Of a stretch of 64,000 nt of DNA, positions 7,700 to 64,000 are shown piece after piece (within the stretch, counting starts at the first letter, position 1; the number at the start of each line of letters is the position of its first letter). The translations under genes were made by a program, and so were the position numbers. Under the pieces are notes generated by a model, which saw only the letters and a list, made by a program, of their open reading frames with translations, did no database searches and was not told where the DNA came from. The DNA is from Eledone cirrhosa (lineage: Eukaryota): positions 2,666,001 through 2,730,000 of the forward strand of contig OZ024750.1 in assembly GCA_964016885.1 (NCBI GenBank), written 5' to 3'.

Positions 7700-9750
7700 T
7701 ACGAGACTACTAAATGAGGAGAATAAATGGCAATAAGATAGTCTGCCCCAAATCGATACAATAGAGGGACCAGAAGTGCAAGTTAAAGGTAGTGCAATAA
7801 GTAAAGCAATCAAAGATACGAATACAAGCAAGGCAGCTGGGCCTTTGGAGATAGTTGCTGAAATGCTGAAAGCATCTGGAATGGTGGGACACACTATGGT
7901 CACCTGGATAGTAAACCAAGTCATACAGAATGGGGTCATACCAAATGACTGGCGTAGCAGCATCATCATCATTAACTGCTACAAGGGTAAAGGAGATCCC
8001 CTAGATAGGGGAAACTATAGAGGCATTAAATTGGTTGACCAGGTCATGAAGGTCACAGAAAGAGTTATAGTGCAACTAATCAGAGAGCGAATTTATCTAG
8101 ATGAAATGCAGTTTGGGTTTGTGTCAGGTAAAAGTACCACAGATGCTCTTCCTTGTACGACAACTACAGGAGAAGTACCTAGCTAAAAGTAGACTCCTAT
8201 ACTTAGCTTTTGTTGACTTGGAGAAAGCCTTTGACAGAGTCCCTCGCTCCATTATCTGGTGGGCTCTTAGAAAACTAGGTGTTGTAAGAGCTTGTAAGAG
8301 CTATGCAAGGTTAGAATTAACAACGAATATAGTGAAGAATTTAGCATAAAAGTTGGTGTTCATCAAGGCTCTGACTTTAGCCCCTCTTATTTATTATTGC
8401 CCTTCAGGCTATAACAGAGGAGTTCAAGACTGGCTGCCCATGGGAACTTCTATACGCAGATGATCTAACTCTCATAGCTGAATCGATGGCTGAACTAGAG
8501 AAGAAATTCCAAACATGGAAGCATGGCCTAGAATCAAAAAGCCTTAAAGTTAACTTGTCTAAGACAAGTTCTAGTATGTAGAAAGGAAAATAGGGTACAG
8601 GTACTCTCTGGGAAATGGCCATGCTCAGTGTGTAGGAAAGGAGTAGGCAGAAATTCCATATGTCCCAAATGCAAACTATGGGTACATAAAAGATGTAGTG
8701 GGATCACAGGTAAACTAAGAACGTAGATTTTATATGTGGCCGATGCTCAGCTGCAATAAGTGGTAAGTGCCTACAGGATACTAGCTCCTATTGCCCAGAT
8801 GGTTCTATAGAAATAGTGGACGCCTTCTGTTACCTGGGTGACAAAATCAGCAGTGGTGGAGGGTGCTCTGAAAGTACGGTAGCCAGAGTCAAAATGGGTT
8901 GGAAAAAGTTCAGAGAGCTTATACCACTATTGGCCACTAAAGGTTTCTCTAAAAATGAAAGGCAGATTATATGATGCCTGTATACAAACAGCAATGTTAC
9001 ATGGCAGTGAGACATGGGCTTTGTGTGCAGAGGATCTGTGCAGACTGGAGAGGGACGAAGCATCCTTGCTCCGTTGGATCTGTATTAGTAATATACGCGA
9101 ATGGCAAAGCATAAATGAACTAAGTGAGAAATTAGGAATAAGAGGGATCAGATGGTCTTTACTTGAGAGAAGACTATGTTGGTATGGTCACGTGATGCGC
9201 ATGAAAGACAACAGCTGTATAAAAAAGTGTAGGGCGATCAAAATTGATGGAAGTTACGGAGTAGGCAGACCCAGAAAAACCTGGGACGATGATAAATTCC
9301 GACCTTACGCCTCTCTAAGACAATGTCACCCAGTAATACAGACGACCCGCCTTGCCTATGTACAAAGCGAAAGCTACATTCAGTAGGCACCTCTTAACCA
9401 AATATACACCCCCATCCCACTACCCCTACTCCACTCCCACCAACACCCTCTCTCTGTAAAGTTATGTTGGTACCACAACATCCAGTCCAAAATAAATGAG
9501 GTCCTGTAGGTGTCACGACAAAAAAACAGTCCACGCTGTAATGTGGCCGTGTAGGTAACACGGTAAAAACACCCAGTCCACACTGTAAACATGGTTGGTG
9601 TTAGGAAGGGCATCCAGCCATAAAAAAACATGCCAGACAGTCCTATACGAGCGAGACATGGTCTCCCGCCCAATCTTGCCTCAAGTAGGACAATTCCCGT
9701 CTAAACCCATTCTAGCGTGGAAGATAGACGTTAAACAATGATGATGATGA
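7700..9750 (+). mobile_element. 5'-truncated, frameshifted RTE-clade LINE with 3' tail, in ARP5 intron 1
   Basis: KAAGP, KGKGD..DRGNYRGIKL, QFGF, AFVDLEKAFDRVPR, GVHQGS, LLYADDL, ERRLCWYGHVMRM and GRPRKTW motifs; ends in (gat)n. Confidence 0.92.
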
Positions 9751-41857: not shown

Positions 41858-42829
41858 TCAAGTAATGTCCAAGCCTTTAGTCTGAATTAATGACACAACA
41901 TAAGGTAATCCTGATGTTTCTAAATCACTGTTACTGCCTCGTTCAAGTTCAATTTTAATAGGATAGGAGTCTTTGGCACTTTTAGAGTGAGAGCTGAATT
42001 CTTCGATATTTGGATGAGATAAATTAGATAGAGTATCGTCAGTTAGCTCTGAAGATTTTAATCGTTTTGGCGGTGAAGGACCTTTTGGGTTTTCACTATC
42101 ACAGTAAGAATGTGGTTGCCAAGGTTCTGATAAATCATCGTGGACAACAATATGTGTATCTGAGTGTCTTGAAGGAAAAGAAGATAAAAAGTCCTTTTTA
42201 CTGCATCTTTTTTTCAAAGGACTTGATGGTTCTTGTTTCAATCCTACAGAATCGTTGGCATAGCTTGAAACTGTAGAGTCTCTATCAGCTGAATAAATGA
42301 TCACCGGTGCAGCTGGTTGTTTTGTTTGGAACTGTATTTGGTTTGTTACCGACTCTGGAGATAAGCTCTGTAACTGTTGGACTGCTTTTGAGATTGTTGG
42401 AGTAACATCCCTATTAGGCAGGCCTACAAAAGATACACCAGTTGATAGTGATGGGCCGTCAGTTTTAGGCATTGTATCAACAACATCTGTTGAAATGGCA
42501 TCCCTCATAATGTCTGGAGATTCATTTGATTGTGAAATTAAGGCCTTAGTTGAGATAGAGTTGTCAGCAGAACTCAAAACTTGCTTCCGATAAAGTTTAC
42601 ACATATCTAAGAGATCACATAAACCAAGAATTTTTGCAATATGTTCCATGTCTTCTAACACCTCCTCGTTAAGAGAGACAACACCTTCATACATATATTT
42701 AGCAAATGACCATAAAGCATCACCACCAATTTCCTGAGAGAATGTCAACTGGAAACATCCTGATGTTACATTGGCATTCGGTAATGTTAAGAGCTGTGGG
42801 CTAAGAGCAATCAACACAACTTTGTGAAC
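41858..42829 (-). CDS. Shared terminal exon: rest of BTB (VHKVVLIALSPQL...FAKYMYEGVVSL...IAKILGLCDLLDMC) plus a Ser/Pro-rich tail with basic patches (PLKKR, PPKRLK)
   Basis: tttctag|GTT acceptor, phase 0; BTB motifs HK.VL.A.S and YMY.G; open to TGA at 41858. Confidence 0.88.
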   Translation of the reverse strand, partial: VHKVVLIALSPQLLTLPNANVTSGCFQLTFSQEIGGDALWSFAKYMYEGVVSLNEEVLEDMEHIAKILGLCDLLDMCKLYRKQVLSSADNSISTKALISQSNESPDIMRDAISTDVVDTMPKTDGPSLSTGVSFVGLPNRDVTPTISKAVQQLQSLSPESVTNQIQFQTKQPAAPVIIYSADRDSTVSSYANDSVGLKQEPSSPLKKRCSKKDFLSSFPSRHSDTHIVVHDDLSEPWQPHSYCDSENPKGPSPPKRLKSSELTDDTLSNLSHPNIEEFSSHSKSAKDSYPIKIELERGSNSDLETSGLPYVVSLIQTKGLDIT

Positions 42830-43318
42830 CTAGAAAAGAAAGAACAAAACGTTTATAGAAAAACAATATAAAACATAAAGAATCTCAAAAACTAACAAGG
42901 AGTATTAAATCTTTCGTTACCAACAAATCTGAAACTGCACTATTTTATAAAATGTTCATGCTTAACTCTTTAGCATTTAAACCAACTGTATCTGACCAGA
43001 ATTCTCTCACCTCTTTCTGTTCAAATCAGCTGTAACCGGCCACTCATACTGATGTTAAGGTATTGTTCTCAAAATAAATAATATCAAAATCTCATAGATT
43101 CGATATTATGTGAGTTAAAGCCTTTACCATGAAAATATAATAGCAAATATAGAGTAATGTAAATGGTAAAGGGTTAAAGACTTAATGTTTGATACTAAAC
43201 ATTCTGTATTTGTGATTTGGATTAGCAATGATTCACCTTAACTACTAAAGAAAAATACATAAGCATCTGCAGATACATACAGAGTTGGACTATCAATAGT
43301 TCAATATTTAATGCTTAC

Positions 43319-43481
43319 CATAATTTTCATTGTTCCATTTCCAATAGAAGCATCACAGAGTTTACCCTTTTTCCAAAGGTTGGCCATATTGGAGAGCATG
43401 TGGCCTTGGTGTTTGTGCACAACATATGAATGAGTGGGGTTTTCAACTGTTTTCATAAAACTCGGTGGAGTATTTTGCTCA
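43319..43481 (-). CDS. Shared BTB/POZ exon 1 (EQNTPP...HQGHMLSNMANLWKKGKLCDASIGNGTMKIM)
   Basis: catacag|T GAG phase-2 acceptor; H...L..M..LW..GKLCD start of a ZBTB/Kelch-type BTB; ATG|GTAAGC donor, phase 0. Confidence 0.88.
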
Positions 43482-45304
43482 CTGTATGTAAATAAAAATG
43501 AAATATAAAGCATGAATGGATGACAAATATAAATTAAAGAAAAAACATGAAAAATAAAACAAAGACGACAATTCTCTGACCAATCAAACATAGACCAGCA
43601 GGGAAAGCAGATGTTAAAATGATGAATGTTCATATGAATATATACCATATATACTTGAATAAAATAAACTGACCACCATTGGGGCAAACATCCAAATATT
43701 ATTAACGTAGAATTTAAAGTTGGTGAAAATCGTCAAAATATTGATCATAAATATAAACCAAACCCTCTTCTACCATCGATGTTTTCGGTCACATATTCCT
43801 TGACTTATATTCGAGTATATACAGTAAGTATTGAGATTTGCAGTACTTAGAAAAAAGAAAAGAACTCATTTCATATTATCTTACAATATAAAACTCACTG
43901 AAGTTGGATATCAGTACCATTAAACAACAAACTTATTAAAATATGTCAGAGAAAGTGGACATAGCATTTATTAAGTGGAAGTGTAGTACTCCATGCAGAA
44001 GCATTGTATTGACATTTGAAGATAAAATACATACAGATTATCATAATGTATGAAAATACAAGGGTAGGCTGAACAGTTTATAGGCATTCTATGAAGGAGT
44101 GATGCTAGTGCTGTGAAATCTTGCATGCATTAATTTCAACCCCTCATGGAAACTGGAGATTTCGCACTGTATGCCACTATTCAGTTTATAATAGAATGAA
44201 AATCTGAGTTGTCTCCCTTGCATTAAACGAATTATTACTAACGATAACGATGTCTTTTTATGATAGGTGTAATTTACATTGTTTTAAGGCTTGCTACATA
44301 TACGGCAGCCCTCAAATATATGCTCTTACTGAAAAAAGTGTTATTGCAAATAGTTTAGAAAGCAACCTATTTTTGTATACATGGAGGTTATGTTGATGAC
44401 TGCAATAAACTTAACCAATGTGGAAAAGCTGTAGTTCCTTTGTAAACCATTAAAGAGTTTAGTTCTGAAGAGATAACTGAACTGATATCTATTTTTGGAG
44501 TAAATGCATTTTATATTTATCAAGTTAGAGTAATATTGATAGATTTTACGGGCAAAACCAACCGGCAGGAGACCCAGGGGTAGACCCCGAGCAAGATGGT
44601 TCGAGTTTGGTTGGTCTTGCTTGGGGATCCAGCCGGATCAGTTGATGACGGTTACTTCTGACATGACCCACTGGAGGGAATGTTTGAGGACTCTGCCCCC
44701 ACGACCATCTCAGGAATAAGTGGTCAAAGGAGAAGAAAGAGTAACATTGGAGATACCAGGGACTGAACCCAGGACCTTTTACTTGCCTAAACCAGAAACC
44801 ATTATTATTGACTAACTATTTCCAAGTGAAGGGTGTAGTAAACTTTAACAGACTGGACATCATTTGCACAGCTCATATATTTATGTACTACCATAATCTG
44901 TACTTGATTTTATTGCCTTGTTGTTTATCCCAAGGCCAGCTTTGATTAAATAAACTTATGATCAAAATGTTCAAAGTTAAAATCAAGTTGAAACCAACTT
45001 TTCCTATCATAGTAGATTGGCAGAATTGCTGAAGCACTGGATAAGATGTCTTGTGGCAATTGTTCTGGCTCTTTGCATTGTGAGTTCATATCCGGTTGTG
45101 ACCAACTTAAATTGTAGATCTACAAGTAAGTGTTAGCATTCAGACCAGACTTGAAGATAATTACTTCTCAGAGGATCTGAAAGGGTCATGAGCACAGCCC
45201 TGACTAAACAGAAAAAAAAAACAAACACCAACAGTGACTATCCATTCCAGACATAGTATATCCAGGACCACATTGATCAAAGTATGGGTATGATGTGAGG
45301 AATG

Positions 45305-45438
45305 TTTCATTGTTTCCGAAGAAGATGGTATGATCGAACCTATATATTATGTCTGATAGTGTACAGTTCTGTAACTGCTATAGATCAGTCAATATATTGA
45401 TATGATCAATCCTCCGAAACGATCGTAAAACAATGAAA
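45305..45438 (+). ncRNA. Hammerhead-like motif with a long stem II (variant core CCGAAGA)
   Basis: 11-bp perfect stem I tttcattgttt/aaacaatgaaa, GAAAC-GATC-GTA, irregular ~93-nt hairpin as stem II. Confidence 0.55.
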
Positions 45439-46239
45439 TGAATATGTAAAATAACTTGCCTTTGTTATCATTGTTAAATAAACTAATATGTTATATATAA
45501 TATTAGGTATAAATTGAAGTTGTAGCTGCCATATAGCAGGTACTACTCGAGTTGAGGCAATCACAAAGCACTCAATGGATTGATAAGCTAAACATTATTG
45601 TCCAGAGTAAAACACAATGGTTAAAATGTGGGACACCAAGAAAAATGACAGAATGCAGTGGCCATACTTATACCACAAGGACAAATACAAAAAGGTTGAG
45701 GACTAACTAACCATATATATGTGTGTGTGTGTATCTTGGGTTCAAGTGGGGTAACCACAGTAAGGTACACAATACATTAGTAGAGTATATAATGTTTAAG
45801 ATAGAAATGGCTTCTACAGGACTAGAACTGTTGGGATTTCCTGGTGATTTTCTTTGAATGAAACAGTTGTAGCCCTGTAAAAGCCATTTCTATATATATA
45901 TATAATCAGATAAGATGTGGTAAAAAACCAGGTGGACCATAACCCACCAGAGTACTCGATACTTGGGGTAGTAAAGTAGGTAATATGATCTAGCTGTCAA
46001 AAGGGCTGGAGCTCAGCCACCGGGGTCCTGAATCTTTTCATATATATACATATACATACATTCACACAACCATCTATGTGTGTGTGTATATAAATATACA
46101 TACATTCACACAACCATCTATATGTGTGTGTGTATATATACATATATATACATTCACACAACCATCTATGTGTGTATATATACATATATCTACATACATA
46201 CATACATACACACAACCATCTATATATGTGTATATAGTG

Positions 46240-46566
46240 TAGAGAGAGGCGTTGCACCCCAGCAAATTTTACGAAAGGCGGGTAAATGTGTTTAGGATGG
46301 CCCGAGTGGTTGGGCCTTCTCTCTATATAAACCTGTAGGTTGCGGGAAGAGAGGAAAGGTGCGCTCCTAGAGATGAAGGTTGTACATTTGTTCGGGGTGT
46401 GTACAACCCATGTGTAACGCCCCCCTCCCCCCTACTGGGGATTTCGATTGTTAAATTTAATATTATTGTTATTAATTCTTTTCTTTCTTTACACGCCTGT
46501 ATGTAAACTCCCCACTATATGTATTTGTCCCCATCTTTTTACGCCCTTGTGGCAAATAAAGAAATA
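46240..46566 (+). mobile_element. Probable LINE (Tx1/L1-like) 3' end
   Basis: GC-rich island ending in aataaagaaat next to TA repeats; family assignment tentative. Confidence 0.35.
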
Positions 46567-46768
46567 TATATCTATATACATGAGATAGAATTGTAAACAT
46601 GCAAACAAAAATAATTTATCTACTAATAAATATTAAGTCCCTTTGAAGTAAATATTTACCATGCTACAATGTTTGTGTGAGAGACGACAGAACATCTTAG
46701 AAAGAATTAACAGATTGTTCAGTCTCCTAACTAAAGATGGTGACAGACGTGGAAATAATTATGCTTAC

Positions 46769-48330
46769 GTGAAAGAGTTGGCGCAAGAATGGACATCTGT
46801 GATCATAAAAGTTGATGTTTCCGAACTTTGATCGGCAACACGAGTCTCTTCCACAGTTTCAACTCTACTACAACTTTTTTCTTTCGATGTTCTTCCTCTC
46901 CCAAAATGTAAACTTTGTAAACATCGAAGGTTGTTTTTAGCTTCACTGGAATTAATTGGAGGTCTTCTGTTTACAACAGGTTCTCGCCAATTGACAGGCT
47001 TTTCGTTAGATTCTCCGACTGTCGTAGAAAGAGGCGGCCTCGTGGCATTAGATTTTGATAAACACGAAGTATTTAGAGTTGTTGATAGTGCTTGTTGCTG
47101 TCGTGGTGGTGGAGTGAGAAGATTTATATTCTTTTTCTGCAAGAAGGAAGCAGAATTATTTGAGAGTTTTTCAAATTCACTTGTGAAATTATTTACCCTT
47201 TTATTGGGCGTCATCTTAGGAGGACTTGGTCGAGTATCTTCCAAAAAGGGTGCTACTGCTGTTGTACTTTGCTCCCCAGCAATGTTACTAAGAATAGATG
47301 CCATTTTCTTTCTCTGTAAAACAGATGTTGGTTGTCCGAATAACTGGCTAATGGCACGAACATCTTTCCTGTTTATTCCACCCCACAGTAATTTCTCTAT
47401 AGCTGTCGCCCTCAAACTGTGATTGGTATAACGTTTTGAGAGTCCTGCTTTGTGGCTTAAAGTAGGCATCATACCACCCAGGGGAGTCTTACCATACGGA
47501 ATGCGATCGAACCAATACGGTTGACTAGAATCTACGAGTTTTTTAGGCTTCTGGAATAGTCTATCAAAATCCTGGTGCAGTTTAGAAATATATAACTCGT
47601 ATGCTCTCACTGGACAGAGTACATCTCCTTTCAGTGATGGTATCAGGCCACCAGCTAATTCCTCATCATTTTCTCCGTTTCCATTATCGAGAGGTTCACA
47701 TTCGTTTTGAACAATACTCCGTTCTCCCTGAGCATCGGTCCGGATAACAAACGATGTTATTTTCAATTCTGTCTGTCCATCTCTTCCTAGTCTACACATG
47801 TAATACTGTAAAATAAACCAAACATACTCCAAAAGTTCTCGTGGAGTTGGATTTTGCATATTTGCTTTAAAATAATCTTTTAAACGTGACATGTCTTGTT
47901 CTTCAACAGGAGGATAATGTCGTATTAGGCCTTTACCCTCAGCTTTAATTCGCTTCTCCATAAAAATAAAGGATTCGTTCGCTTCGACGAAAGCATCCCC
48001 TTTGATGATATCCAGATTGAGAGTCTCTTCGAAGTGTCGTTTCAGTGCATAACGAAGAGAACGGAAAGCTGTGAGCTGATAAAGTTCACATTTTTTTGTT
48101 CGCGCTCCAGCATATAGCCGCTTCAATACCTGACATAATAATGACACATCTTTACACGCTGACTCCACATTATAACCAACTTCATTGCAAAAATCAGTGA
48201 ATACTCGTACCCCCCATTGAGTGCTATCTTTCGTTTTCTGACAGTGTTTGTCTTCATTAATTTGTTTACTTGAATTATCGACAATCAAATTACTACTAGG
48301 TTGGACCACCTTATGCCACTCAGTCGCCAT
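46769..48330 (-). CDS. Crypton-derived DUF3504 / tyrosine-recombinase-like first exon (alternative N-terminus B of the BTB locus)
   Basis: Intact 520-codon frame with T..ST.WGVRVF, F..LRYALKRH, CRLGRD, CPVRAYELYISK, PYGKTPLGGMM, YTNHSLRATAI motifs; own ATG (caagATGGCG) with an upstream in-frame stop; ends TTC AC|GTAAGC (phase 2). Confidence 0.85.
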
Positions 48331-48783
48331 CTTGTCAAGTTGGCTTAACGACAGTTAATACATATTCAATAAAATGGATTTTTTCTAATAGTGCAGAAAA
48401 TTTCTCATAGTACAGGTTCGTAAGTTTTTCAGCAAAGGAATTATAATGACAGAAAAAACACTGAATCGTCTTCAAAATATAATTTACATCTATTTGTAAG
48501 AGTTGAGGATAATCTGGATAGATAGATTTTCGACAGAAGTTACATAAATTGTTTAAGACTGGGTAGTAGTACTTGGTAGAAGTCGACCAACCAATCTAAT
48601 AATAGCTGATTATAGAGCCACTGCTGTCAGTTTAGCTTGCTAGCTATCGGTCCTGCAAAACAAGCAATATAATACAGCCATAGAAAGCAGTTCACTCGAC
48701 TTGTAACGGTTGTTGTTATTCATAAAACAAAACAACTTAATGGAGGATAACAGATCTGATAGTGTATGTGCTTGTCTAGTGTG

Positions 48784-48816
<33 letters not shown>

Positions 48817-50135
48817 TTGCTGTGCATATGCCAATATATTAATTCTAACAATAGCTGTGTGGTTTTTGTTTTAAATATGTATATATATTGTTTTCTCTCT
48901 CATCTCTAAACAACAAGAAAACAATTGAAATCAATCAGAAATTTTACACGAAAGATTATTTTATTTAAAAGAAATTATCAATTATTTTCGCCTATTTCTT
49001 TTAGAATAGAATTTTATATATCTAAATATATGCCATATACCTATTAAGCAGAACTCGAAAATAACTGGGACAGAAAAAGAATTATCTTTTATGCTGAGAC
49101 ATCAGAAATAAACTACTGTATAAATTTTAACTTCAGTAATTAAATAAGAATTCTTTATAAAATTGAAATGTAATCCTAAATAATCTATAAACATGAGACA
49201 TCAACTTCACTTTATTTTCTTATTTACCATTAACAAAAGGTAATGTTAAGTGCTCCAACATGACCACAGTTCAATGACTGAATACAGTTTAAAAATAAAT
49301 TAAAGTAAAGTCATTACTTTACTTTATTTTTTTTTAACTGTACTAAACTGTATTGTTTCTTTTAAAGAGAGTGTTTTCAAAATTAAAAGCACACGTGAAA
49401 AAGATCCTATAGTTGAAACAAAGCCCTCAATTCATGATTTCTGCGAAGTTTCTTCAAGTAAACCAACATTACTTTTAATATGAAAAACTGAGGGTAATAT
49501 CAAGTTAGAAAAACAAATCTCTCTCATACCAAATTTTAAAATAAGGTATTTCATATTTGTTAATAAATAATTTAATGTTCTTAATTTATCTATTATGCCC
49601 ATATTTAACCCTTTCATTACTATATTTCTAATGACCAAATGATATTGCTTTTGATTTTCAAATAATCAGGAATTTTGAGGCATCTGGTAATATAACTTTC
49701 TCATTAAGCTTTCCAATATAATGGAAAGTTTTTAGGTAAATATAAACACTTTAAAACAAACAAATTTTAACTGTAGCACCAGTGGCGGTTTTAATACCTA
49801 AAGGGTTAGGTAAGATGAACATAAGTAGTTTTACCTTTTTACATATTCCAGCCGATTAGCTGAGGCCATGCTGGGGCACCACAAACGAGAACTTTTTGTT
49901 ATAAGAATGAATATAATTAATTTGGCCAGTTAGTCAATCATAGATCAGTGCTAGCTAGATAAGTTCTATGACTAAAGATATTTCATGTATAACCATTCAG
50001 TCTTTTATTCAGACATATTGCAAGTAAAGAGCTACACTATCACATTTGTCCTTAAAAAAAGCCCCCAAAGATTAGGCTGATATAGCTTTCAGATCAAGCA
50101 ACAACTTTGAGATACCCTTATTGTCCTAGTTAGCA

Positions 50136-50320
50136 TACAAGGGTCAGCTGAAAAGTTAATAGTCTGACCAAGATACTCTTATGGAATGATCAAATGAGGT
50201 TTATTTTGTTCCTGGTAAGAAACAATTATTGATAAAAAGAGTTGAAATTAATGCAAGATTTCACATCACTAGCATCACTCCTTCATAGTCAACCTATGGA
50301 CCTTTCAACTGACCCTCGTA
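50136..50320. mobile_element. Tc1/mariner-type MITE (related fragment at ~44057-44150)
   Basis: TA-caagggtcagctgaaaagt ... acctttcaactgaccctcg-TA imperfect TIRs with TA target duplication. Confidence 0.7.
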
Positions 50321-51499
50321 TGTATTAGTGAAGGAACAGAGTGAGAAATTTAAATGGAAATACAGTAACGGTGACAAGATAAAATAGAAGGACTGTGATG
50401 AGGTTTTCTTTTTTTATCATGCATGATAAAGTAAAATACAAGTATATCATGCCAAGAAAGAAGGTACTTCAAATCTACATAAAACTATCTAAGGCTACAA
50501 GGAAAAAGAAATATCATTTGGAGTAATGGAAACATGTTTTTTGTGTTGTACTGAATATTAAGTTATTTGTTGAGTACAGAAAATGAAAGAAAAATCATTA
50601 ATTTAACCCTTTACATTACTCTATATTTACTATTATATTTTCGCAGTAAAGGCTTTACCTCACATAATATAAAATCTACGAGATTTTGATATTATTTATT
50701 TTGATAACAATACCTTAACATCAGTTAAGCGGCAGTTTGCAGCCGGTTTTAAGAGAGAGGTGAGAGAATTCTGGCTGGATACAGCAGGTTTAAAGAGACA
50801 CTCATAAGGTAAATGTCAGCAGCATCTACTGGATATATATATTAAAACAAGCAATGTCAACTCTACACCTTGTCCCTAAGGAGATAATTAGATGGAAGTA
50901 AAGAAAGAGACAAAAAATACTTGGCAATTTGATGTGTTAGATAATTAACCCTTTAACATTTACATTACTCTATATTTACTATTATATTTTCACGGTAAAG
51001 GCTTTACCTCGCATAATATCAAATCTGAGATTTTGAGAATACCTTAACATCAGTAGGCTGGTTATAGCCAGTTTGTACAGAATTGTAGAGAATTCTGGCC
51101 AGATGTGGCTGGTTTAAATGCTAAAGGGTTAAAGAAGGCAGAAAAACCACATGGCATGAAGGCCATAATTGCTTATGTTAAGTGGCATTGCATTTGATTA
51201 TGTTGATGATGATGATGATGTATACACACATTTATTTGAATTTATGAATGATGATAATGATGGTGGTGGTAGTAGTTTCTCAAGTTATTGCTGATTCTTG
51301 TTTATAAGTAGGTAACGTGGGTTTCTTATTTCATTTATTTATTTATTTTTAAAATCAACTTGATCTTCTGGACCTAGAAACTGAAGCAATTGATGGTATA
51401 TTGATCATCTGGCAATGGGAGTACCACACTGACAATCATCAGTAATTAGTGAACTGGGTATGGGAAATTTAATCTTCATATTCTCTAGCATGTAGCCTC

Positions 51500-51730
51500 C
51501 TCCATGCTAGAGAACATGGACATGTGGTTAGAATGTCTCAGGAAAGAATTGCTGGACTTAAGGCAACACCAATTGGCAGGAGACCCAGGGGTAGACCCTG
51601 AGCAAGATGGTTGTATAACATCCATGAGTTTGGTTGGTCTCACTTGGGGATCCAGCTGGATCAATTGGAGATGGTTGCTTCTGACAGGACCTGCTGGAAG
51701 GGGTGTTTGAGGACTCTACCCCCCAGGGTA
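51500..51730 (+). mobile_element. RTE/L2-like LINE 3' fragment (second copy at ~44540-44740)
   Basis: GRRPRGRP.ARW motif; the two copies are mutually similar. Confidence 0.6.
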
Positions 51731-53157
51731 AGAAGAAGATAGTCTCCAGTAAATGCAGAACATGTAGGTATGCTTCTGGGATTAATCCCATTACTTAGCA
51801 CTTGGGAAAATACTTTTTTATCATAGCATCTCTTTGGCTAATACTTTGTGCATGAAATTTGGTAGACAGAAACTCTGCAAAAGCCCTACACACACACAAA
51901 AGGCTTTATATTAGATGAAGAAGAAAAACATTATATACACACACATATATATATATATATGTGTAAGTGTGTATAGGCAAATTATTATTATTATTACTAA
52001 TGAGTTCAAATCCCGCCAAGGTTAACTTTGTCTGTCATCCTTACGGGGGTCGATAAAATAAAGTACCAGTAATGTACTGGGTAATTGCTGGCCTTGTGCC
52101 AAAAGTAGAAACAATTATTATTACTAACAATAATAATAATAATTTGCCTCATGTGTCAGGTTGACACTTAGCAAGATATAGGAAAGAAGCAGTATTCAAA
52201 GGAAGTTTCAAATAATAGTAAATCTTGTGAGAGTTGTCCTGTTTTTCTATACTCGCATAGTTGGGTTGTGATAGTGTATATTTTTGATATACATACATGC
52301 AGATACAAAAAGAAAATAACTGAGTATTAAATTTTAACTACAAAATGAAACAATCTGCTGAAAAAGAGTTGGAATATTTCGAGTAATTGGTAATGGAGGA
52401 AGATGGAGCAAAGAGCAGAAAGAAGAAAGCTTGTAAGTAGCTAGATTTACCTTTTAATCTAATAGATACCATATTGGACTAGAGCAGAATAGACAATATA
52501 ATTAACTAGCAGTTGACTAAGCACATCTGGAGTTTTACTATAGCTTCTGTATAGAAATTCAAAGAGATGAAGACGTAATGTGTATCAAATTATTAATGAA
52601 TAAATAACTAGCACCTAACATCAAGTAGCTTTTAAGCGATCAATAGAAGCAATCGATATCAGAAATGTTCTAAATTTATCAGATGAATTCATAACAGGCC
52701 AAGAAATACATTATCTAAATTTTATATAATCATTACATTTAGCTTAAATAATATATTCTATGAAACATGATTCATTGTAAAGTAAATATATATTTATATA
52801 TTATGAATAAAACAAAGCTAAATATATAATTTCTCTATCTTAAGTGCCTTCGTAGTGTATATTCTGTTTAATTAGAATTAACAATATGTATTTCATTTTT
52901 TTCCACACTTATTTTCTGTTTATTGTTTGTACTTATTTTTTCAACACCGTTATAAGTAATGTAGCTGATTAAATAGGAACATTTTCATGTGTTCAAGTTG
53001 CAACAGATTGTTTTTAGCTACGTGTCTTTCCAAATGCCAACTACAGGAGCACTACCTATGAGATAACTAGATGAACAGATGATGAATTTGCTTGAGTAAT
53101 CTTATTCCTTAATATGCACTCCATAGCATAAAAATAATTAATGTCTGTGGCAATATA

Positions 53158-53351
53158 TTAACCCTTTAGCATTCACATTATATATACTATTGTATATTCA
53201 CAGAAAAGGTTCAATCTATGAGAGTTTGATATTATTTATTTTGAGAATAATACCTTAACGTAGGTATGAGTGACCTGTTATGACCAGTTTGAACAGAAAA
53301 AAGTGAGAGAATTCTGGCCGGATATGGCTGGTTTAAATGCTAAAGGGTTAA
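53158..53351. mobile_element. piggyBac-type MITE (other copies ~9750-9946, 13288-13480, 42962-43178, 50603-50793, 50945-51132, 53626-53795)
   Basis: TTAA-CCCTTTAGCATT ... AATGCTAAAGGG-TTAA termini; shared interior (gagattttgatattatttattttgagaacaatacc). Confidence 0.85.
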
Positions 53352-53942
53352 GGTAGTAAAGCAAATATGGAAAATAGACATTAAACGATGATGATAATGA
53401 ACAAATTTGTCAGGAATCCAGTATTTAATTCTTAATCTCCTGTACCATATGAAACCACAGTAGCAAGACATTCTTCAAAAGTACAAAACAACACTATGAC
53501 TGCATCATATTAAAAATTAAAGTTTTTATCTAATACTATACATTTTCTCAATAATCTGTTCATTAGTAAAGATACTATAAACATTTGAATTAACAAACCA
53601 GTTATTGACTGCATTACATTAGAAATTAACCCTTTAGCATTCAAACTGGCCAGAATTCTCTCACCTCTTTCTGTTCAAACTGGTCGTAACATACTGATGT
53701 TAAGGTATTATTCTCATAATAAATAATATCAAAATCTTATAATTATGTGAAAATACAATAGTATATATAGAGTAATATAAATGCTAAAGAGTTAAAGTCT
53801 TTATCTAATACTATAAATTCTTCTCAATGATCACCTGTTCACTAGTAAAGATACTATAAACATTTGAGTTAACAAACCAGTTATTAGATATTTTGAAGTT
53901 AATCATTACAGGATGTTAAGAGTTAAATCAATGTTATGACAA

Positions 53943-54130
53943 TAATTGTTTCTACTTTTGGCACCAGGCCAGCAATTACCCAGTACATCACTGGTACTTT
54001 ATTTTATCGACCCCCGTAAGGAATGAAAGGCAAAGTTAACCTCGGCGGGATTTGAACTCAGACTGTAAAGGGACGTAACTATGCTAGAAAGCATGGCGTC
54101 CAACCCTCTACCGATACTGCCAATTCACCA
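53943..54130 (-). mobile_element. tRNA-derived SINE (other copies ~6995-7090, 17040-17205, 52000-52118)
   Basis: B-box-like gagttcaaatccc; shared core actggtactttattttatcgacccc; (aat)n tail; several copies in the window. Confidence 0.75.
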
Positions 54131-55025
54131 ATAATGAACAATTATCTTCATCTTATACACGAGTATATATAGGGATATATGGCATCCATTTCTATGTCCA
54201 GATGAAAATATTTAGAAATATATATTTATTGATCACTCCAAATTATAGTTAACTAATGGTTACAATAATTTAACTGATTTTTAAAATGTAAACTTGATAG
54301 AATCGAGAGTTGTAAAGAAGGAGCAGGAATGAGCTGAATATAATGGATATGAGGTAACCATTAGTCTAGTGTTGATGTTAGTAGCAATGCAGTAGATCAT
54401 GAAGATGTATATTGATCTATTAATGATTATTAATTAGCAATAGATTGTTCAAGATGATAAATGAATTGTCCTTTGGCTGTTCAGCAATTTTATGAAAAAT
54501 GTATTTATTTATTGACAATTGTAAAATAATCCAATAGAATATTAGAAATTCATAAAAACAAACCTTCAATTATTTACAAACTCTTAAATGGCAGTTGTAT
54601 AAGCTAGTAAGACAGCAAACTTCAGAACAGAAACAGTGGTATCCTAGCTTTCAATTCAATTTTCACTGATATAGTTATGTCCATTAAGAAGGTGAGAGTT
54701 GATAAAGTCAATAAGTAGCAGACTCCTTGCTTAAAATTGGCTCTAGTCCAGAGAGAGAAAGAGAGATCTGTAATTATGTTTTCTGTATTATTGAATCCAG
54801 GCTTGAAAAATGTCCCCTATGTTAGTAGCCATCCACCACTTTTAAAATAAAAAAACTGTTTGAAGAGAAGCTCTTAGATATAAGACAGGTTCTTAAATGT
54901 CTCAAGTATTAACAGATGAGGTAGAGCCAACTAACAAGTCTTTAGAACTTGATGAAAGTTTAGTACTTTTTCAAAGCCTTGCTTCAACTTTGAAAGAACA
55001 TAAAGAGCTAGAAGAGTTAACTTAC

Positions 55026-55423
55026 CCATATAAGGATCTTTTGTTCTGTCTTTGTGTTTGGTTTTGAAGTTCCATGTTTTGTTGAACATCTACATTCATG
55101 TGTGAAAGTCTAGATTGTATACTTGGAATCTGTGCATTATTAAGCATGGCAGATTGATTGTAAATGGTGGGCTGGACTTGAATACAATCATTTATTGAAG
55201 TTAGTTGACTAAAGTAGTTTGTAATATCAGGTAGGTTAAAGTGAGTATTTGAATTCTCAGAGTTAATATGAGATTGCAAATCAGCAGGAATGATTAGATG
55301 GTTAGGGTTGTCATTAACATCTGTAGGTAGTTTGATGAAATTTGATGAAAGATCAGATTTATTCTCAAATGATGGAAGAATCCGTTCCGAGAGTGGTTCA
55401 TGTTTGATTGTCTGACAATCAGC
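55026..55423 (-). CDS. Second exon of the THAP isoform (Q/N/S-rich linker, contains IKHE, a possible SUMO motif)
   Basis: tttgcag|GCT phase-0 acceptor matches the THAP donor; 398 nt open; ends TAT GG|GTAAG (phase 2). Confidence 0.8.
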
Positions 55424-56399
55424 CTGCAAAGGAAAAGTTATTTTAACAAATGATTATGAAAATATATTATTTACTATACATAAACATGCAATTCAAAAAC
55501 ACTAGTTATTGATAGAATTATTAAAATTATGTTCTAAAATTTATCCATACTACCGTTTAATAATAAAACACTCTTTTTAGCAACATCAAATCTATTATAA
55601 ATTCCTATTTATATATAAATATATTCTATTATAAATTCTTATAGGGACCAGAAAATTGATAAATAGAATGTTCTGGAAACTGCATACCTAGATGTAAGAT
55701 ATACATATACTAACTATGACTATATACTAGTGGAGGGGGGGGGGTCTGGTTAGGCAATGTAGGCAGTATCTATCCAGACTAAAACTCTAGTTATTAAACT
55801 TCTATTCAATACAAAGCAGTTTATTATAACATGTTTATATTTAGCTAAACACATTCCATTATAATTTTATGAACCTTTGTTAAGTTCTGCACAAACGACA
55901 TGTTTAATAATAAAGTTATTTATAATACTAAATTCCTCCAATTCCTTGACTATTTTCAAAATTATAGACATCAGAAATATGGTAATGAAAGGGTTAATTA
56001 TTAAATATAAAAAAATGACTACTGATTATAAAAATGTTAATAGAAGTGTATAATTAGGTGAATGGCTACTATTTTAATGTTAGATACAATTACTAATGTT
56101 GTTGATGACTACTATATATACTAGTATGTAAAGCTATTCCCATGCTGGAGTTCAGCTCTAGAGTATAGAGTCAACAAGAAAGAAATGATTGTATTTCTCC
56201 AGTGTTTATGGAGTGACGAATATGTGAACCCAGTGTTGGATTGACCATTGCATTTAAGCACGGGCCCAGTTAGCCAGGGAGGGACCATTTTCCTGCCAAC
56301 AAATTTTTTTACCGGCTTCAGGGCCCAAGTAAGGGGCCTCATAATTTAACTAGCTGAGACCCTCATTTGTCCTAAATCTGGCACTGTGTGCACCTGTAT

Positions 56400-57530
56400 T
56401 ATATAGTGAATATATGTCTGTATTTTATAGTATGTATGATATTGTGTTATATAGCATGTGTGATACTGTGTTATATAGCATGTGTGATATTGTGTTATAT
56501 AGTATATGTGGTAGTGTGTTATATAGCATGTGTGATAGTGTTATATAGTATATGTGATACTGTGTTATATAGTATATGTGATACTGTGTTTTATAGCATG
56601 TGTGATAGTGTGTTATATAGTATATGTGGTAGTGTGTTATATAGTATATGTGGTAGTGTGTTATATAGCATGTGTGATACTGTGTTATATAGCATGTGTG
56701 ATATTGTGTTTTATAGCATGTGTGATAGTGTGTTATATAGTATATGTGGTAGTGTGTTATATAGCATGTGTGATACTGTGTTATATAGCATGTGTGATAT
56801 TGTGTTATATAGTATATGTGGTAGTGTGTTATATAGCATGTGTGATAGTGTTATATAGTATATGTGATACTGTGTTATATAGTATATGTGATATTGTGTT
56901 ATATAGTATATGTGATACTGTGTTATATAGTATATGTGATACTGTGTTATATAGTATATGTGGTAGTGTGTTATATAGCATGTGTGATACTGTGTTATAT
57001 AGCATGTGTGATATTGTGTTATATAGTATGTGTGATATTGTGTTATATAGCATGTGTGATATTGTGTTATATAGCATGTGTGATATTGTGTTATATAGTA
57101 TATGTGATACTGTGTTATATAGTATATGTGATATTGTGTTATATAGTATATGTGATACTGTGTTATATAGTATATGTGATATTGTGTTATATAGTATATG
57201 TGATATTGTGTTATATAGTATATGTGATACTGTGTTATATAGTATATGTGATATTGTGTTATATAGTATATGTGATACTGTGTTATATAGTATATGTGAT
57301 ACTGTGTTATATAGCATGTGTGATACTGTGTTATATAGCATGTGTGATATTGTGTTATATAGCATGTGTGATATTGTGTTATATAGCATGTGTGATATTG
57401 TGTTATATAGCATGTGTTATATAGTGTTATATAGCATGTGTGATATTGTGTTATATAGCATGTGTGATATTGTGTTATATAGCATGTGTGATATTGTGTT
57501 TTATAGCATGTGTGATACTGTGGTGTATAT
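56400..57530. repeat. 21-bp minisatellite (tgtgatactgtgttatatagca / ...agta variants)
   Basis: About 50 tandem units in the intron between the THAP exon and the linker exon. Confidence 0.95.
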
Positions 57531-58391
57531 AAACTGTCTGTATACGTAGATGTAAGATATATATAACTATGACTATATATTCCAAACTAGTGTGTAAATA
57601 CAAGTTATTGTAAGTACAGTACCAGCTGCTTGGACTTGTCAACTATTGCAGGAAATATTGTTACTGATACCCAAACTATGGAACACTTAGTTCTACTCCA
57701 TTTACACTGACTGGAGCAATACAACAATAACACATCCTTTATATTCTAAAACAGAATCAACTTCAATAAACATTTAGATCTGAGGAAACTAGAGATGGGA
57801 TTGTGTGGGGCAAATAAACAGTTCAGAGGTGTTAACAGATTGTTTTGTTACGAGAAAGAGGAAAAAGTGTAACGTTTCGGGGAGTTACTCTTCATCACCA
57901 GAAAGGTATTACTAATTTCAGTGATACAATATGAAAAAAATATTTAAAAAAAAAACCCATTGTAGGTATTACAGTCTGATTAAATGTATAACCCTGGTGG
58001 ACAGTGCCACAACTTAGTACATCAATATGTTGGAGCCATTTTTATAAGTTTAATAGAAGTATATATAACATGTTGGAATGTTTTGTTCAACTAAAGAATT
58101 TAACGTCATCATATCGTAAACAAATGTTCCAAATATTGGACTTGGAATCAAAGATTATGGTACAAGCAACCGAAATAAAACTATCTGAATTACTATATCG
58201 ATGTGTAGTAATCGAGATATATATGTTGATTCCTGAGTTGTGTCGGGAAATGACCACAATTAAAAAAGGGTACTCAATACATTGGTAGAGTATAGGCATC
58301 TTTATATATATATATATATATATACACACTCACAGGCACACATAACCCTGATTTCATACGAATGAAACAGTTCTAGTACTGTAGAAATCAC

Positions 58392-58435
<44 letters not shown>

Positions 58436-58609
58436 CCCTCTCTCTCTCTATATATATATATACAGGGTGTCCCCCCAAAATGCATACACACTGATTATCT
58501 GTACAGACATTATATATATATATCAATTGGAATGAAAGGACATTTTATTATGAAATATTCTGCCACTTTTCTAGTAATATTTAGTAAATAAAATTGGCTG
58601 GCAAGAATG

Positions 58610-58730
58610 TGAGAGGAAGATATGGTGAGGTGTGTGAGGAAGATATGGTGAGGTGTGTGAGGAAGATGTGGTGAGGTGTGTGAGGAAGATGTGGTGAGGT
58701 GTGTGAGGAAGATATGGTGAGGTGTGTGAG
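58610..58730. repeat. 23-bp minisatellite (ggaagatatggtgaggtgtgtga) x5
   Basis: Direct tandem copies. Confidence 0.9.
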
Positions 58731-59262
58731 TCGTATTCATGTTTCAGTATCAAATATAACATGTTTGTATTGTCACGTTTTAAAACAGGAAATATTTGTA
58801 AAAATATCTGTAATAAATAACAAAATATGACTGAAGACTGAAGCAAACCAAATAACAAATAATATATATAAAGTTACGATGGATATTGGTGTTTCGGAGG
58901 ACAAAACATTGGTTAAATGTCAATATTTGATGAACTGGCATCAACATTTAGAAAGTGTTTTGAAAATATATCTCAAGCATGTGGAACTATTTCGTTAACA
59001 ATAAATAACCTTCATGAAGAATAAGGCCACGTAATTATTTGTAAAGAATAATTAATTAATCAACTTGCTGGTGCCCTCCACACTCGTACATGGTTGAAGT
59101 TTACTAAAGAAATATCTTAACAAGCTTAAATATATTTGGGAAATAGAGACGACGAACAATCTTTTATTTATATATGAAAATATATTTTTTATGTACAAAC
59201 GATATACGTGTGTTTTGGGTTTATAAAGAGGGAAGGAAAACAATTAAATTAGATGAACTCAC

Positions 59263-59757
59263 TTCGATTTGATTGAGGAAATCACGAGAAGTTGAAACAT
59301 TAGTGATATCTTCGAAGTCGAAGTCACATTGTAAAATCTTCGGAGAAAATAACTCATTCAAACTTTTCTGCGATGTCAAATTAATATATTTATTAGCCCA
59401 TGGACAAACAGGAGGAATTCTCAGAGTCATCGGCCGATTCTTACGTTGTTGTTCAGGCGACATATTATCCAGTCCCATCTGGGTTCGCATCATGTTGTAA
59501 TTATTGATAATCGCAGGCCATTCCTGTGACCAAGGGAAAAATGAAGGGTCTTTTTTGTCATGGGTCTTTTTGCCGTTGGGAAAATGTAGACTACAAACAC
59601 TTGTGTACTTCGAATCAATTCGTAAGTTACTATTCCGAATGAGCGCAACCCAAGTAGCACGGCGGGTTTCTTCCTTAGGGAGACTATAGAAACGAATTCT
59701 TGCGTGTCTTTTAGAGTCTGCAGAACAGAAAGGGATGCAGCAATTAACATGAGGCAT
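59263..59757 (-). CDS. THAP zinc-finger first exon (alternative N-terminus A of the BTB locus)
   Basis: N-terminal C-x4-C (CCIPFC), F..LP.E..RR..W...I, VCSLHF and DPSFF (AVPTIF-like) boxes; 165 codons then GAA|GTGAGT donor, phase 0. Confidence 0.88.
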
Positions 59758-61069
59758 TATTACTATTAATTGTTTTTTAAATGTCTCCCTCTTTTTTTTT
59801 TATTTTCATATACTGAAATGTTTTCATGGGGACTGGTGGAACTTAAGTCTAAACAGCTATGGCGGTCACCTTCCCCGATAAAATCCCATAATGCATCAGT
59901 AAATCTAGAATACGAAGTGAGATTGCCAAGAGAACAAGGGCTGCTTTTGATTATTCCTCTTTGATACTAAAATTCCTTTTTTATCTCGTGGAATGCTTAC
60001 GAAAACCGTTCCACTTCTTCTTTGAATGACTTTTCAAAAAAGGGTTTTATAGAATGGAACAAAACGAACTAAATCCTTTAGATTAAAAACGTATGAAAGT
60101 GTAGTTATTAGATTAATAGTCAGAACCCCTAAGATACTATGCATCATAAATGTCTACACTACTTGACCTACTAAATGTTTGAAATTATATATAACTATTT
60201 TACATAGTCTTCCAGATTGGCAAAGACTTTTCAAAATTGGACATTTGCATCTTGGATTTAGAGTGTTTTACCAGCTCCAATCGTTGGTAATTGTTTTTCA
60301 TTGTTACATGGAGACAAGTTGAGTAATATAAATTATTGTAGTATGCTAAAGTAATCAGAAATAGACCCCCTCCCCCATTGTGATATGTTATGATGTATAC
60401 TTCTGCATGGAAAATTTAGTTTAGTTGTGTCTTGTGTATGCATGTTTATGACTATAGTAGAAAACAGCATGGACCAGTCGATAAAAGGTTGTTATCCCAC
60501 CCATCCATCTTATTCATCGACTCTGCCTCTCCAATGTGCAGAACCCAAGATGTATGCCAGCTCATTGTCCCAGCAGACAATAGAGAAAGTATTACCCCAG
60601 AGAATAGCAAAGAAGAGGTATTGAAAAAAACCCATTCCAACTCATGGAACTTATTCCTGCAGGTGGCCAACTCATTTCCAATAACTATGAGTAGGAAGGA
60701 GGTTTGGGGACCCACGAGTCTTCATTGCTGTTCGTTCAATGGTAAACTTATCAGAAAGCAGCCTTTACTTTAAACAGCTTTTGACCTTCAGCTTGGCAGG
60801 CAACAAAATATGGGACTGTCACAGAATTCACCAGGTTGCTAGGTTACCACCATGGTGCAGGAAGACTGATGCCATGAGGATTTTTTCCGTCTCTTTGGTA
60901 AAATCCTACTTATTCGAGCTGCTATGGAAAGACAGCAGTGTCTAAACCAATCATGGACAAACTGCAGTCTATTCGGTTTTCTGAATGGCACACCTAATTT
61001 CTAAATTGCCTTGATATATTTTAGTAGCGTGGCCCACCTTATAATGAGCCACATTCTATGCTGTCCACT

Positions 61070-61240: not shown

Positions 61241-63149
61241 CCAACAATGACAAGAACTTCGCTGTCAGTAGCCCAGCTGATTTAACTGAATATTAAACCT
61301 GGAACAATACTGTTACAATGTTTAAATTGGTACTAAATATTTGTGTTAAATTAATTCCAATTAAAATTGTGTTCCTTGATAGTTGATACATACTATGGTT
61401 CTTAAAATGTAGAAGTCTAAAGACTGTCTGGAGCCTGGGGGCTCCTCAGGCTGGTGCCTAGTTTCCATGGTGAGAAATGACTGAGAGTACAAGACTCTTC
61501 TCTGGTTCCAGCTATTGCTGATATCCATTTTCAGCTGAGTATACTGGGGCAACGTGAAATGAAGTGTTTTGCTCAAAGACAACACAGTCCAGGAATTGAA
61601 CCCAGGACATTATTATCCTAAGTCCAACCCTAACAATATGCCACATGTGTTTGTATATTTGTATATATCTCCATCTGTAACTCTTTTAAAATTTACACAC
61701 ATGAACATACCCACAATGTATTTCCTGTATCAGTCATGTTGCTGCAGTAAGAAGTTTGTTAACCACTCAGCTACACACGTTAAAATGATGGATTGTAATG
61801 TTGGTTCTCATGTAGTCAGTTGCCTTCTGCTGCCCTAAAGAAACAAGTTATAATCTTAACGTGTATTTACAAATATAGTCATATCTATATGTGTACGTAT
61901 TTGGCTTGTATAAAACTTTTCATAAAATAGCCAGAAGGATTGAAATGTGAAGAATTTAAAATCATTTTCCCATCCAATTTTTTATGCTGGCATGGGTTGG
62001 ATGGAATGTATTAAGACAATGTTTTACAGCTAAATACACTTCCTGATGCCAAACCTTTTAGACACCTTTTACAGCAGGGATACAGTGTGTTTATTAAAAA
62101 ACAAACAAGATACACTTGTTTATAATAATAATAATAATGAAATTATTGTGTACAGTGCTCAGGTGCATATAGAATAATGTACAAATGTCAGGAAAATGAA
62201 CAGTCATGATATACATGTAGAATAGTACTAAATTAATTATTTTATCATATAATAAAGCAGTAAAGGTATTTGGCTGTCCAAATACGTTTAAAAGTTTTGC
62301 TAGTACTGAAGAAATAACAAGTGGAAGAGGAATTGGTGGCTGTATTGATTAAAATAATTGTTTTTGAAAATTGATTCAAAATAAATTCTCTGGAATATAA
62401 AACTTGTCCTTTAGTTGTGATAAATTCTACTGTTGACAGTTGCTACAACCTTATTCTATATATCCTACTAAACAAAGTAATTAATACTTACCAATTATTA
62501 AGTTTCTCTGTATATTTTTTTATATTTTTAATAATTCATCTTCAGAAAGAAAGGGGAAGTAATTACATAAAATTATTCCTATATTAACTCCCTTGTATTG
62601 AAAGAAAAACTTTAAACGAAATAACAAGCTACCCGATGCTGGTGCATATGTTGCCAGCCAATTTGTCAGGGGCCCAGCTCCCGTAAACTTCTCTAACGCT
62701 ACAGGCTGGAAAAAATAGTTTTCGTTCTATAGTTTAACATATTACAATGTGAATAAAATAGGCTTTAAGAACTATGAGTACGCTAAGGAGAATTACTACA
62801 GTTTTGTGTTCTCATAAATTTCTTAATAATGAATATTTTAAAATGAAGTTTTATGGAGGTGCGTTTTCAAAAGTGTGATTACGATTGTATCGATGAAATT
62901 GAAAAAAAAAAAGTAAGTTTTAATTACTTGGAAATGAACGGTTATGACTGACCACGGGAAGTTCTTCTCTAAGGCACACACTTGTGCAAAGATGTCTTGG
63001 GAAAAATCATCAGTCACTCAAGCATACCAATCTTCCCCCTCAACGCCACCAATATTGTCCAAGGTAAAAGCTGTACAGCTCGGCACCAGTGTCACTGCAG
63101 GCGAACGACTGTCTCGAGTCCGGAGGTTTATTAAGTCTGTGCTTATCTC

Positions 63150-63260
63150 CATTTCCGGGTGATGGCAAGGCTGATGCGCTGGAACAACCAAGCGCCCTCA
63201 CGAGCACCACCAGTTACCTCAGTTAGGCGAGCAGCCAGTGAAGATGAAGACCTCGCACGT
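63150..63260 (-). mobile_element. CRE-like retrotransposon 3' fragment
   Basis: SSLAARLTEVTGGAREGAWLFQRISLAITR, typical CRE C-terminus. Confidence 0.6.
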
Positions 63261-63764
63261 ATTTTTAATTCTTATATATATATATATATATATATACAGT
63301 ATTAATATATAAGGAACAAAGAATCAGTGTTGGATCATATACATATTTATTACATATCACATGTTTCACTGTCGATCAGCTCGAGGAACGATCTATTAAT
63401 GATTATATCTGACTCTGGAATCGGAAGCTCCTCAGATAAGTAGGCTCGCGTCTGACACACACACTTTATATATATATATAATGATCAACTTTCGTCAAAT
63501 TGGACCGAGGAAACAATGTTTCCATTGGTCTTTCCAATTGCTAATACTATCTGTCGGTCGCAACTCCAGGTAGAAGCAGCAACGTGAAATAAAGTGTCTT
63601 GCTCAAGGACATAACGCATCGCCTGATCCACGAATTGAACTCACAACCTCACGATTGCGAACCCAATTCTCTAACCACTCATCCACACGCCTTATATATA
63701 TATAAATACACACACACACAAAATCAAACAGCTTTTCAATTTTTGCACTTAAGAGCTACAATGC

Positions 63765-64000
63765 CGCACTATGGCACAGCGGAGCTAGGGTGACTCATTA
63801 TGGCACAGCGGAGCTAGGGTGACTCATTATGGCACAGCGGAGCTAGGGTGGTACACTATGGTACAGCGGAGCTAGGGTGGCACACTTCTGTAGAGTGGAG
63901 CTAGGGTGGCACACTATGGTACAGTGGAGCTAGGGTGGTACACTATGGTACAGTGGAGCTAGGGTGGTACACTATGGTAGAGTGGAGCTAGGGTGGCACA
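63765..64000. repeat. 29-bp minisatellite (cactatggtacagtggagctagggtggta), runs off the window end
   Basis: About 8 tandem copies. Confidence 0.9.

Follow-up and report, generated by a model that had tools for sequence, protein, structure and literature searches.

Two unrelated 5′ modules, THAP and DUF3504, probably alternate on one constant BTB domain in a gene of Eledone cirrhosa

The analysed stretch of Eledone cirrhosa DNA, 64,000 nucleotides of contig OZ024750.1 (C10:2666001-2730000 in a 3.0-Gb genome; hereafter the window), carries on its minus strand a THAP and a DUF3504 module upstream of a single BTB domain. This arrangement raises the question of whether the two modules are alternative beginnings of one gene, parts of neighbouring genes, or transposon remnants. 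The first-pass annotation had proposed that each module has its own start and is spliced to the shared BTB domain. With a probability of roughly 0.78, the locus is a single gene in which either of two 5′ modules, each with its own start, is joined by cis-splicing to a constant BTB region, such that promoter choice sets the heads of the BTB dimer, and it represents a two-module member of a molluscan gene family.

The tandem variable exons share the strand of the constant exons and are located upstream of them. Module A consists of a THAP exon of 495 nt (59263..59757), running from an ATG at 59757 to a phase-0 donor (GAA/GTGAGT), and a linker exon of 398 nt (55026..55423) with a fitting phase-0 acceptor and a phase-2 donor (GG/GTAAG). 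Module B is a single exon of 1562 nt (46769..48330), in which DUF3504, uninterrupted as in domesticated Crypton genes, and a low-complexity tail extend from an ATG at 48330 to a phase-2 donor (AC/GTAAGC). The constant region comprises an exon of 163 nt with the N-terminal part of BTB (43319..43481), preceded by a phase-2 acceptor (cag/T GAG), and an exon with the remaining part of BTB and a Ser/Pro-rich tail (41858..42829), with the TGA stop codon at 41858. All previously assigned coordinates check out, for the ATGs, donors and phases of the five exons as well as for the BTB acceptor at 43481. In Pfam searches module A matches THAP with an E-value of 1.5e-11, and module B matches DUF3504 with an E-value of 8e-7, its score of 29.7 lying exactly at the cut-off. 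BTB is found in constant exon 2 alone with an E-value of 1.3e-3 and 19.3 bits, below the cut-off of 20.5, and with an E-value of 3e-9 once the exons are joined, as in the orthologous protein. The donor phase fits the acceptor in both window modules (2/2). Since an agreement of two donors is expected by chance in 1 of 9 cases, and by itself is weak, the real support comes from the presence of the junctions in the proteins of relatives.

These junctions are observed in gene models or in spliced contigs. The DUF3504-BTB form is present in Octopus bimaculoides (XP_014776313.1) and in O. sinensis (XP_029656788.1, isoform X1 of LOC115230799), with 894 residues each and the junction ANSF-T-EQNTP, which agrees with the predicted AC/T join. 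The THAP-linker-BTB form is present in Argonauta (GAB1597304.1, junction SFY-G-EQNTP), in a protein that carries the name of isoform X2 of LOC115230799, and in a Sepia protein the end of the THAP exon is followed by the linker and then by BTB, with the junction LPT-G-DRNV. In the set of related proteins the linker is joined to THAP in P0240, P0002 and P0242, and to BTB in P0002 and P0007. The proposal of two alternative N-termini on one BTB domain is thus upheld: gene models of four cephalopod species agree with it, and paralogues follow the same design.

The window proteins are 86–99% identical to their Octopus orthologues in the conserved parts. The THAP exon shows 96% identity to O. bimaculoides XP_014776314.1, 87% to Argonauta GAB1597304.1 and 58% to P0242, which is from a more distant cephalopod, while the DUF3504 core is 98% identical in O. 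bimaculoides and O. sinensis. These values bear on the possibility that the modules are functionless transposon remnants, spliced in by accident, for which the origin of the domains in transposon families and the location of the locus in repeat-rich DNA could be taken as signs. However, the cores are 99% (THAP) and 98% (DUF3504) identical to those of O. bimaculoides, against 77–80% for the linkers, the THAP exon is retained in P0242, and each window module occurs only once in searches of its own genome. Accidental splicing of remnants is therefore regarded as extremely improbable.

The window locus contains two modules and is not a long array; long arrays belong to its paralogues. The suggestion that more variable exons might lie beyond position 64000 was not confirmed, as 75 module queries revealed no further module in the next 200 kb upstream. 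The sole other match in these 200 kb covers 33 residues (E-value 2.5e-5), no long unexplained minus-strand open reading frame (ORF) was seen upstream, and an exon of dystrophin is located on the same strand at ∼76.2–76.5 kb, ∼12 kb upstream of the window.

Elsewhere in the genome, the BTB exon is matched 22 times. All 8 DUF3504 ORFs found and 10/18 THAP matches have a BTB paralogue within 150 kb downstream of them and in the same orientation; the regions that qualify make up 0.04% of the stranded genome. A further 4 THAP matches lie on the unplaced contig C581, where modules of an array are located. The array in question is large and tiered, with ∼30 candidate modules before one BTB domain on the plus strand of C4:234669434-234784808 and C581:27423-65747 (loci L057-L060, L021-L029 and L063-L067), and corresponds to O. 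bimaculoides LOC106877732. C581 is probably a displaced part of the C4 array; a gap of Ns is present in C4 at 234660712. The heads of the array comprise THAP, truncated THAP, DUF3504, CENP-B/Tc5, Psq, FLYWCH and BrkDBD, and its C4 part contains ∼20 single-exon modules. Between 234.67 and 234.78 Mb, 18/20 scanned ORFs have a Pfam match with an E-value of 0.01 or better, 17 of which are accounted for by 7 THAP (8 if a weak one at 234741853 is counted), 2 DUF3504, 4 CENP-B/Tc5 and 2 Psq domains, 1 C17orf113-type finger and one spurious DOG1 match on a truncated THAP. With tblastn, the count of DUF3504 ORFs rises to three, and two additional truncated THAPs appear.

The best donor after the domain is in phase 0 in 19/21 candidate ORFs of the C4 array, versus 66/242 controls (p 2e-9), and these donors match two phase-0 acceptors. 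One exception at C4 and 5/9 scored C581 ORFs have phase-1 donors, which are compatible with an additional linker exon that has a phase-1 acceptor. It follows from this layout that the array is tiered, with three phase-matched tiers before one BTB domain, like the nesting of THAP-linker and DUF3504 in the window. Downstream of the constant exons of the array are a second copy of BTB exon 1 (C4:234796662-234796856, L030) and another exon 2 (234840617), which may be an incomplete duplicate or another constant region.

The organization in module, linker and constant region recurs at C4, at C11 and in Haliotis. In further paralogues a BTB exon pair, interrupted within BTB by the same intron, is preceded by FLYWCH, DUF3504 or THAP exons; these paralogues are located on the plus strand of C11:590936-761085, C23:1126203-1149978 and C21:7741528-7758590 and on the minus strand of C7 (11263.5–11270.1 kb) and C23 (6419–6431 kb). 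A Logan DUF3504-BTB protein, the contigs of which do not exceed 4.6 kb, spans 16 kb when mapped to C21, and other Logan proteins from short contigs have THAP and ZSWIM3-type heads in front of 828 shared residues with 99% identity, which points to spliced RNA as their source. A quick BTB tree groups 27 internal BTB domains, including that of the window gene, with a support of 99 in the Shimodaira–Hasegawa-like approximate likelihood ratio test (SH-aLRT); one row inside this group is labelled N-terminal by a position cut-off. The BTB domains of Haliotis, Lymnaea and C23 fall outside on long branches, and since the tree leaves the Haliotis BTB apart from the octopus ones, orthology with Haliotis rests on the modules; the tree is compatible with one or with several origins of the family. 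Tandem clusters of BTB paralogues are present at C4 285.95–286.08 Mb (6 matches) and 297.95–298.33 Mb (4 matches), of whose 5′ modules a sample was examined.

A BTB search against 1.84 billion representatives revealed relatives with an internal BTB domain behind varied heads. Among the 40 scanned of the 150 listed, these heads include THAP, DUF3504, CENP-B, FLYWCH, CG-1, STPR and ZSWIM3/FAR1, and the named relatives are numbered isoforms of single Octopus genes. In Haliotis rufescens the isoforms of LOC124116851 extend up to X14, and the 12 isoforms read share 638–751 C-terminal residues in three tiers behind 7 THAP, 2 FLYWCH, 2 C2H2 and 1 MADF heads. Five of the Haliotis heads are truncated THAPs completed by a common exon; the C4 array contains four truncated-THAP exons that are 41–57% identical to them, and the completing exon is common to both, with 41–44% identity over ∼45 residues. 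Four O. bimaculoides RefSeq isoforms in the supplement of PMC10027918 match these modules, and 3/4 join at the predicted donors. In Argonauta, gene models of two duplicates of the window gene (GAB1597305.1 and GAB1597306.1; P0003 and P0004) retain the tail of the DUF3504 exon (41% identity over 115 residues), and the place of the DUF3504 core is taken by a head resembling a zinc ribbon (E-value only 0.13 for the Pfam IS1595 ribbon) and by a BED-like motif recognized by eye. Such new heads on an old tail could mean that module capture is still ongoing. Neither the Haliotis isoform nor the Argonauta N-terminus had a usable match in the ESM Atlas.

In an animal with gene-body methylation, undepleted CpG marks unmethylated 5′ ends. 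The ratio of observed to expected CpG (CpG o/e) is 0.84–1.0 over the THAP exon and the sequence 5′ of it (58.8–60.0 kb) and 0.68–0.99 across the DUF3504 exon, unlike the depleted linker and BTB exons (0–0.58). Promoter-like motifs, a CGCCAT core and an SBS/ZNF143-like site, are located on the minus strand 100–140 nt before the THAP ATG (59859..59896), and the DUF3504 ATG is overlapped by a YY1-like motif. In the C4 array the median CpG o/e of the 400 bp preceding the ATGs of 19 modules is 1.00, versus 0.40 in array introns (p 3e-8), and YY1-like motifs occur at 6/19 modules versus 1/135 controls. The SBS-like motif was also considered as a common promoter element of the array and rejected, being present at 0/19 C4 modules. 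RefSeq cDNAs of the C4 orthologue start with different sequences, two of which, compared by eye, match the DNA directly 5′ of their modules. The CpG profile, the YY1-like motifs and the distinct 5′ ends in this paralogue suggest, indirectly, that the modules have separate promoters. A further CpG-rich stretch (62800-63600, CpG o/e 0.82–1.11), in which no module ORF was found, is a possible additional promoter or young repeat.

The points that weigh against one gene with two alternative starts concern its junctions and its promoters. At the window locus the junctions are supported by the gene models of other species, both full-length forms have not been recovered from any single species, and isoform X2 of O. 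sinensis is known only via the name of the Argonauta protein. Upstream of the DUF3504 ATG, a strong splice acceptor at 48652, overlooked in the first-pass annotation, opens a stretch of 322 nt with four upstream ATGs (48331..48652, minus strand). On approximate matrices this acceptor scores 7.1 and the BTB acceptor 3.6; an AG immediately 5′ of the DUF3504 ATG was rejected as acceptor (score −8.5). In the window genome the linker spliced to 48652 reads G-T-D-S-stop, giving a THAP product that lacks BTB. In the 2015 annotation of O. bimaculoides, where LOC106873460 and LOC106873459 are separate models, THAP and linker form a gene of their own, and XP_014776314.1 ends in G-TDSQLAS, a tail that maps to the 48652 acceptor. 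The spliced Logan protein P0242, in which THAP is joined to the linker, also stops just past the linker, without BTB. The locus could thus consist of two neighbouring genes, a DUF3504-BTB gene and a gene with THAP only, the end of which would be at the 48652 exon or close to it, with THAP-BTB as a rare read-through product or a merge of models. This appears unlikely, as linker and BTB are joined in frame in the Argonauta and the Sepia models, the Argonauta name points to an isoform of one gene, and the same layout of module, linker and constant region is found in the paralogues and in Haliotis. The 48652 acceptor and P0242 suggest that THAP-start transcripts have at least two fates, and that the DUF3504 exon is more than a first exon; the side route from linker to 48652 would produce either a BTB-less THAP form or a target of nonsense-mediated decay.

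As to the promoters, the CpG value before the C4 modules is only weakly above that of the repeat-rich upstream background (0.77, p 0.036), and acceptor-like sites are slightly commoner before the C4 module ATGs (p 0.03). The latter excess, and the strong acceptor before the DUF3504 ATG, would be in line with one promoter and a shared non-coding leader, from which the modules are selected as mutually exclusive internal exons; trans-splicing, which is documented for lola and mod(mdg4) in PMC11426971, is the other variant. The acceptor before the THAP ATG is poor, however (score 0.8), the 5′ regions of the modules lack CpG depletion and are enriched in YY1-like motifs, and the cDNAs of the C4 orthologue begin differently. 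Trans-splicing is not needed, because every module examined is on the strand of its BTB domain and cis-splicing suffices. Both variants are accordingly judged decidedly improbable.

If the locus is one gene with two alternative starts, each module would start its own transcript, and the first donor would be joined to the acceptor of the next tier, skipping the downstream modules. The products would be a THAP-linker-BTB protein of ∼675 residues and a DUF3504-BTB protein of ∼898 residues. BTB would pair these products, such that promoter choice sets the DNA- or chromatin-binding heads of each dimer, and in the largest family members the same principle would apply to tiered arrays with tens of modules. 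DNA binding by THAP domains is well established. A two-copy model of the orthologous BTB domain has a score of 0.79 (best control 0.01), contacts that agree by at least 89% between runs, and a predicted local distance difference test score (pLDDT) of at least 82; the mark applied is reached by 21/30 solved homodimers and 0/23 single chains (17/29 and 0/30 for eukaryotes). As BTB dimers are among the solved structures, the model may reflect likeness instead of binding. Most likely the shared BTB domain allows the products to pair as homo- and heterodimers, for which we infer a role in gene regulation.

The closest solved relatives of the BTB domain are gigaxonin, KLHL3, NS1-BP and ZBTB17/8A/18, with no KCTD protein among 11 matches. 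Of the R-H-R-Y catalytic tetrad, the DUF3504 domain of the window keeps the H-x-x-R motif (HSLR), and no tyrosine follows within the next 40 residues; the tyrosine column is not firmly placed, because the match to XerA is insignificant (E-value 1.3). The DUF3504 exon on C21 (L039:6528-7709) shows by eye a G-Q-K-S...G-Y segment after H-x-x-R, and this module may retain the recombinase tyrosine that the window module seems to lack.

Tandem variable 5′ exons with their own starts, joined to constant 3′ exons, are known from the clustered protocadherins and UGT1A, where the variable exons are paralogues of one family. The present family resembles these systems in its tandem variable 5′ exons, but its heads are unrelated (THAP, DUF3504, CENP-B/Tc5, Psq, FLYWCH, BrkDBD, MADF, C2H2, CG-1, STPR and ZSWIM3/FAR1) and form nested tiers that possess linker exons of their own. 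With lola and mod(mdg4) it shares one constant BTB domain and many alternative DNA-binding modules. According to PMC11426971, mod(mdg4) has at least 30 isoforms, mostly with FLYWCH domains, and 17/20 lola isoforms have different C2H2 fingers; the paper reports no BTB domain of the TTK type from Mollusca. Unlike in lola and mod(mdg4), the polarity is reversed, with variable 5′ exons and BTB near the C-terminal half, and the heads originate from many unrelated families. A related BTB family with the lola polarity is present among proteins P0033-P0075, in which pairs such as P0043/P0044, P0071/P0073 and P0062/P0064 have 542–619 identical N-terminal residues and different tails (BEN, C2H2, DDE zinc-finger, DUF3504); one 61-residue query did not find it in the Eledone genome. 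A precedent for DUF3504-BTB via an alternative 5′ exon, not cited in the first-pass annotation, is KCTD1b, in which a single-exon Crypton-derived DUF3504 upstream of BTB forms a new transcript variant; KIAA1958a/b has two alternative DUF3504 exons (both from PMC3212892). KCTD1 gained one module and has no THAP alternative, unlike the window locus, and in view of the absence of KCTD proteins among the closest solved BTB domains the window fusion is probably independent.

Mukherjee and Moroz (2023, PMC10027918) describe Octopus THAP-BTB and CENPB-BTB fusions as separate factors and name BTB as a transposon source. Their factors belong to the family described here. In the supplement to their Table 1, LOC106877732 is named 11 times; the 8 entries examined are CENPB, Psq and THAP entries with different gene names. 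The word 'isoform' appears nowhere in the main text or in the five supplements searched, and the window gene (LOC106873459/60) is absent from the table. The oyster BTB gene clusters described in PMC12111275 are not these arrays, and no description of the arrays was found in the literature searched, a scope that lay outside most subscription papers and bioRxiv supplements. Many of the listed THAP, CENP-B and Psq 'genes' would then be isoforms of one locus, which changes the counts of cephalopod transcription factors.

It is put forward tentatively, as a possibility and not as the expected outcome, that molluscs keep an old, lineage-wide system in which many BTB loci serve as landing pads for transposon DNA-binding exons, taken up along with the promoters of these exons; the captured exons would be ordered into phase-matched tiers and brought together by BTB pairing within and perhaps between loci. 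If so, ∼30 heads at one locus and ∼20 BTB paralogues would be available, and stochastic or cell-type-dependent promoter choice could yield a protocadherin-like dimer code. On the preferred reading of one gene with alternative starts, the family would be a mollusc-wide counterpart of lola and mod(mdg4) with reversed polarity, a dozen unrelated DNA-binding families, and promoter choice in place of 3′ splice choice. It would probably allow a single gene to supply many gene regulators, and would offer a direct view of the capture of transposase domains by host genes, with the two-module window locus as the simplest copy in which to study promoter choice, exon skipping and heterodimer formation.

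A 24-bp tandem repeat with 46.5 copies (56419-57531) is located in the intron between THAP exon and linker, and ∼22 kb of (TA)n-type microsatellite (18000-40000) lie downstream of the gene. An exon on the minus strand (2592-2897) presumably encodes part of actin-related protein 5, which it resembles by eye. The plus strand carries a Met/Gln-rich ORF without a clear Pfam match (417-842) and broken pieces of the reverse transcriptase of a long interspersed nuclear element (7737-9383).

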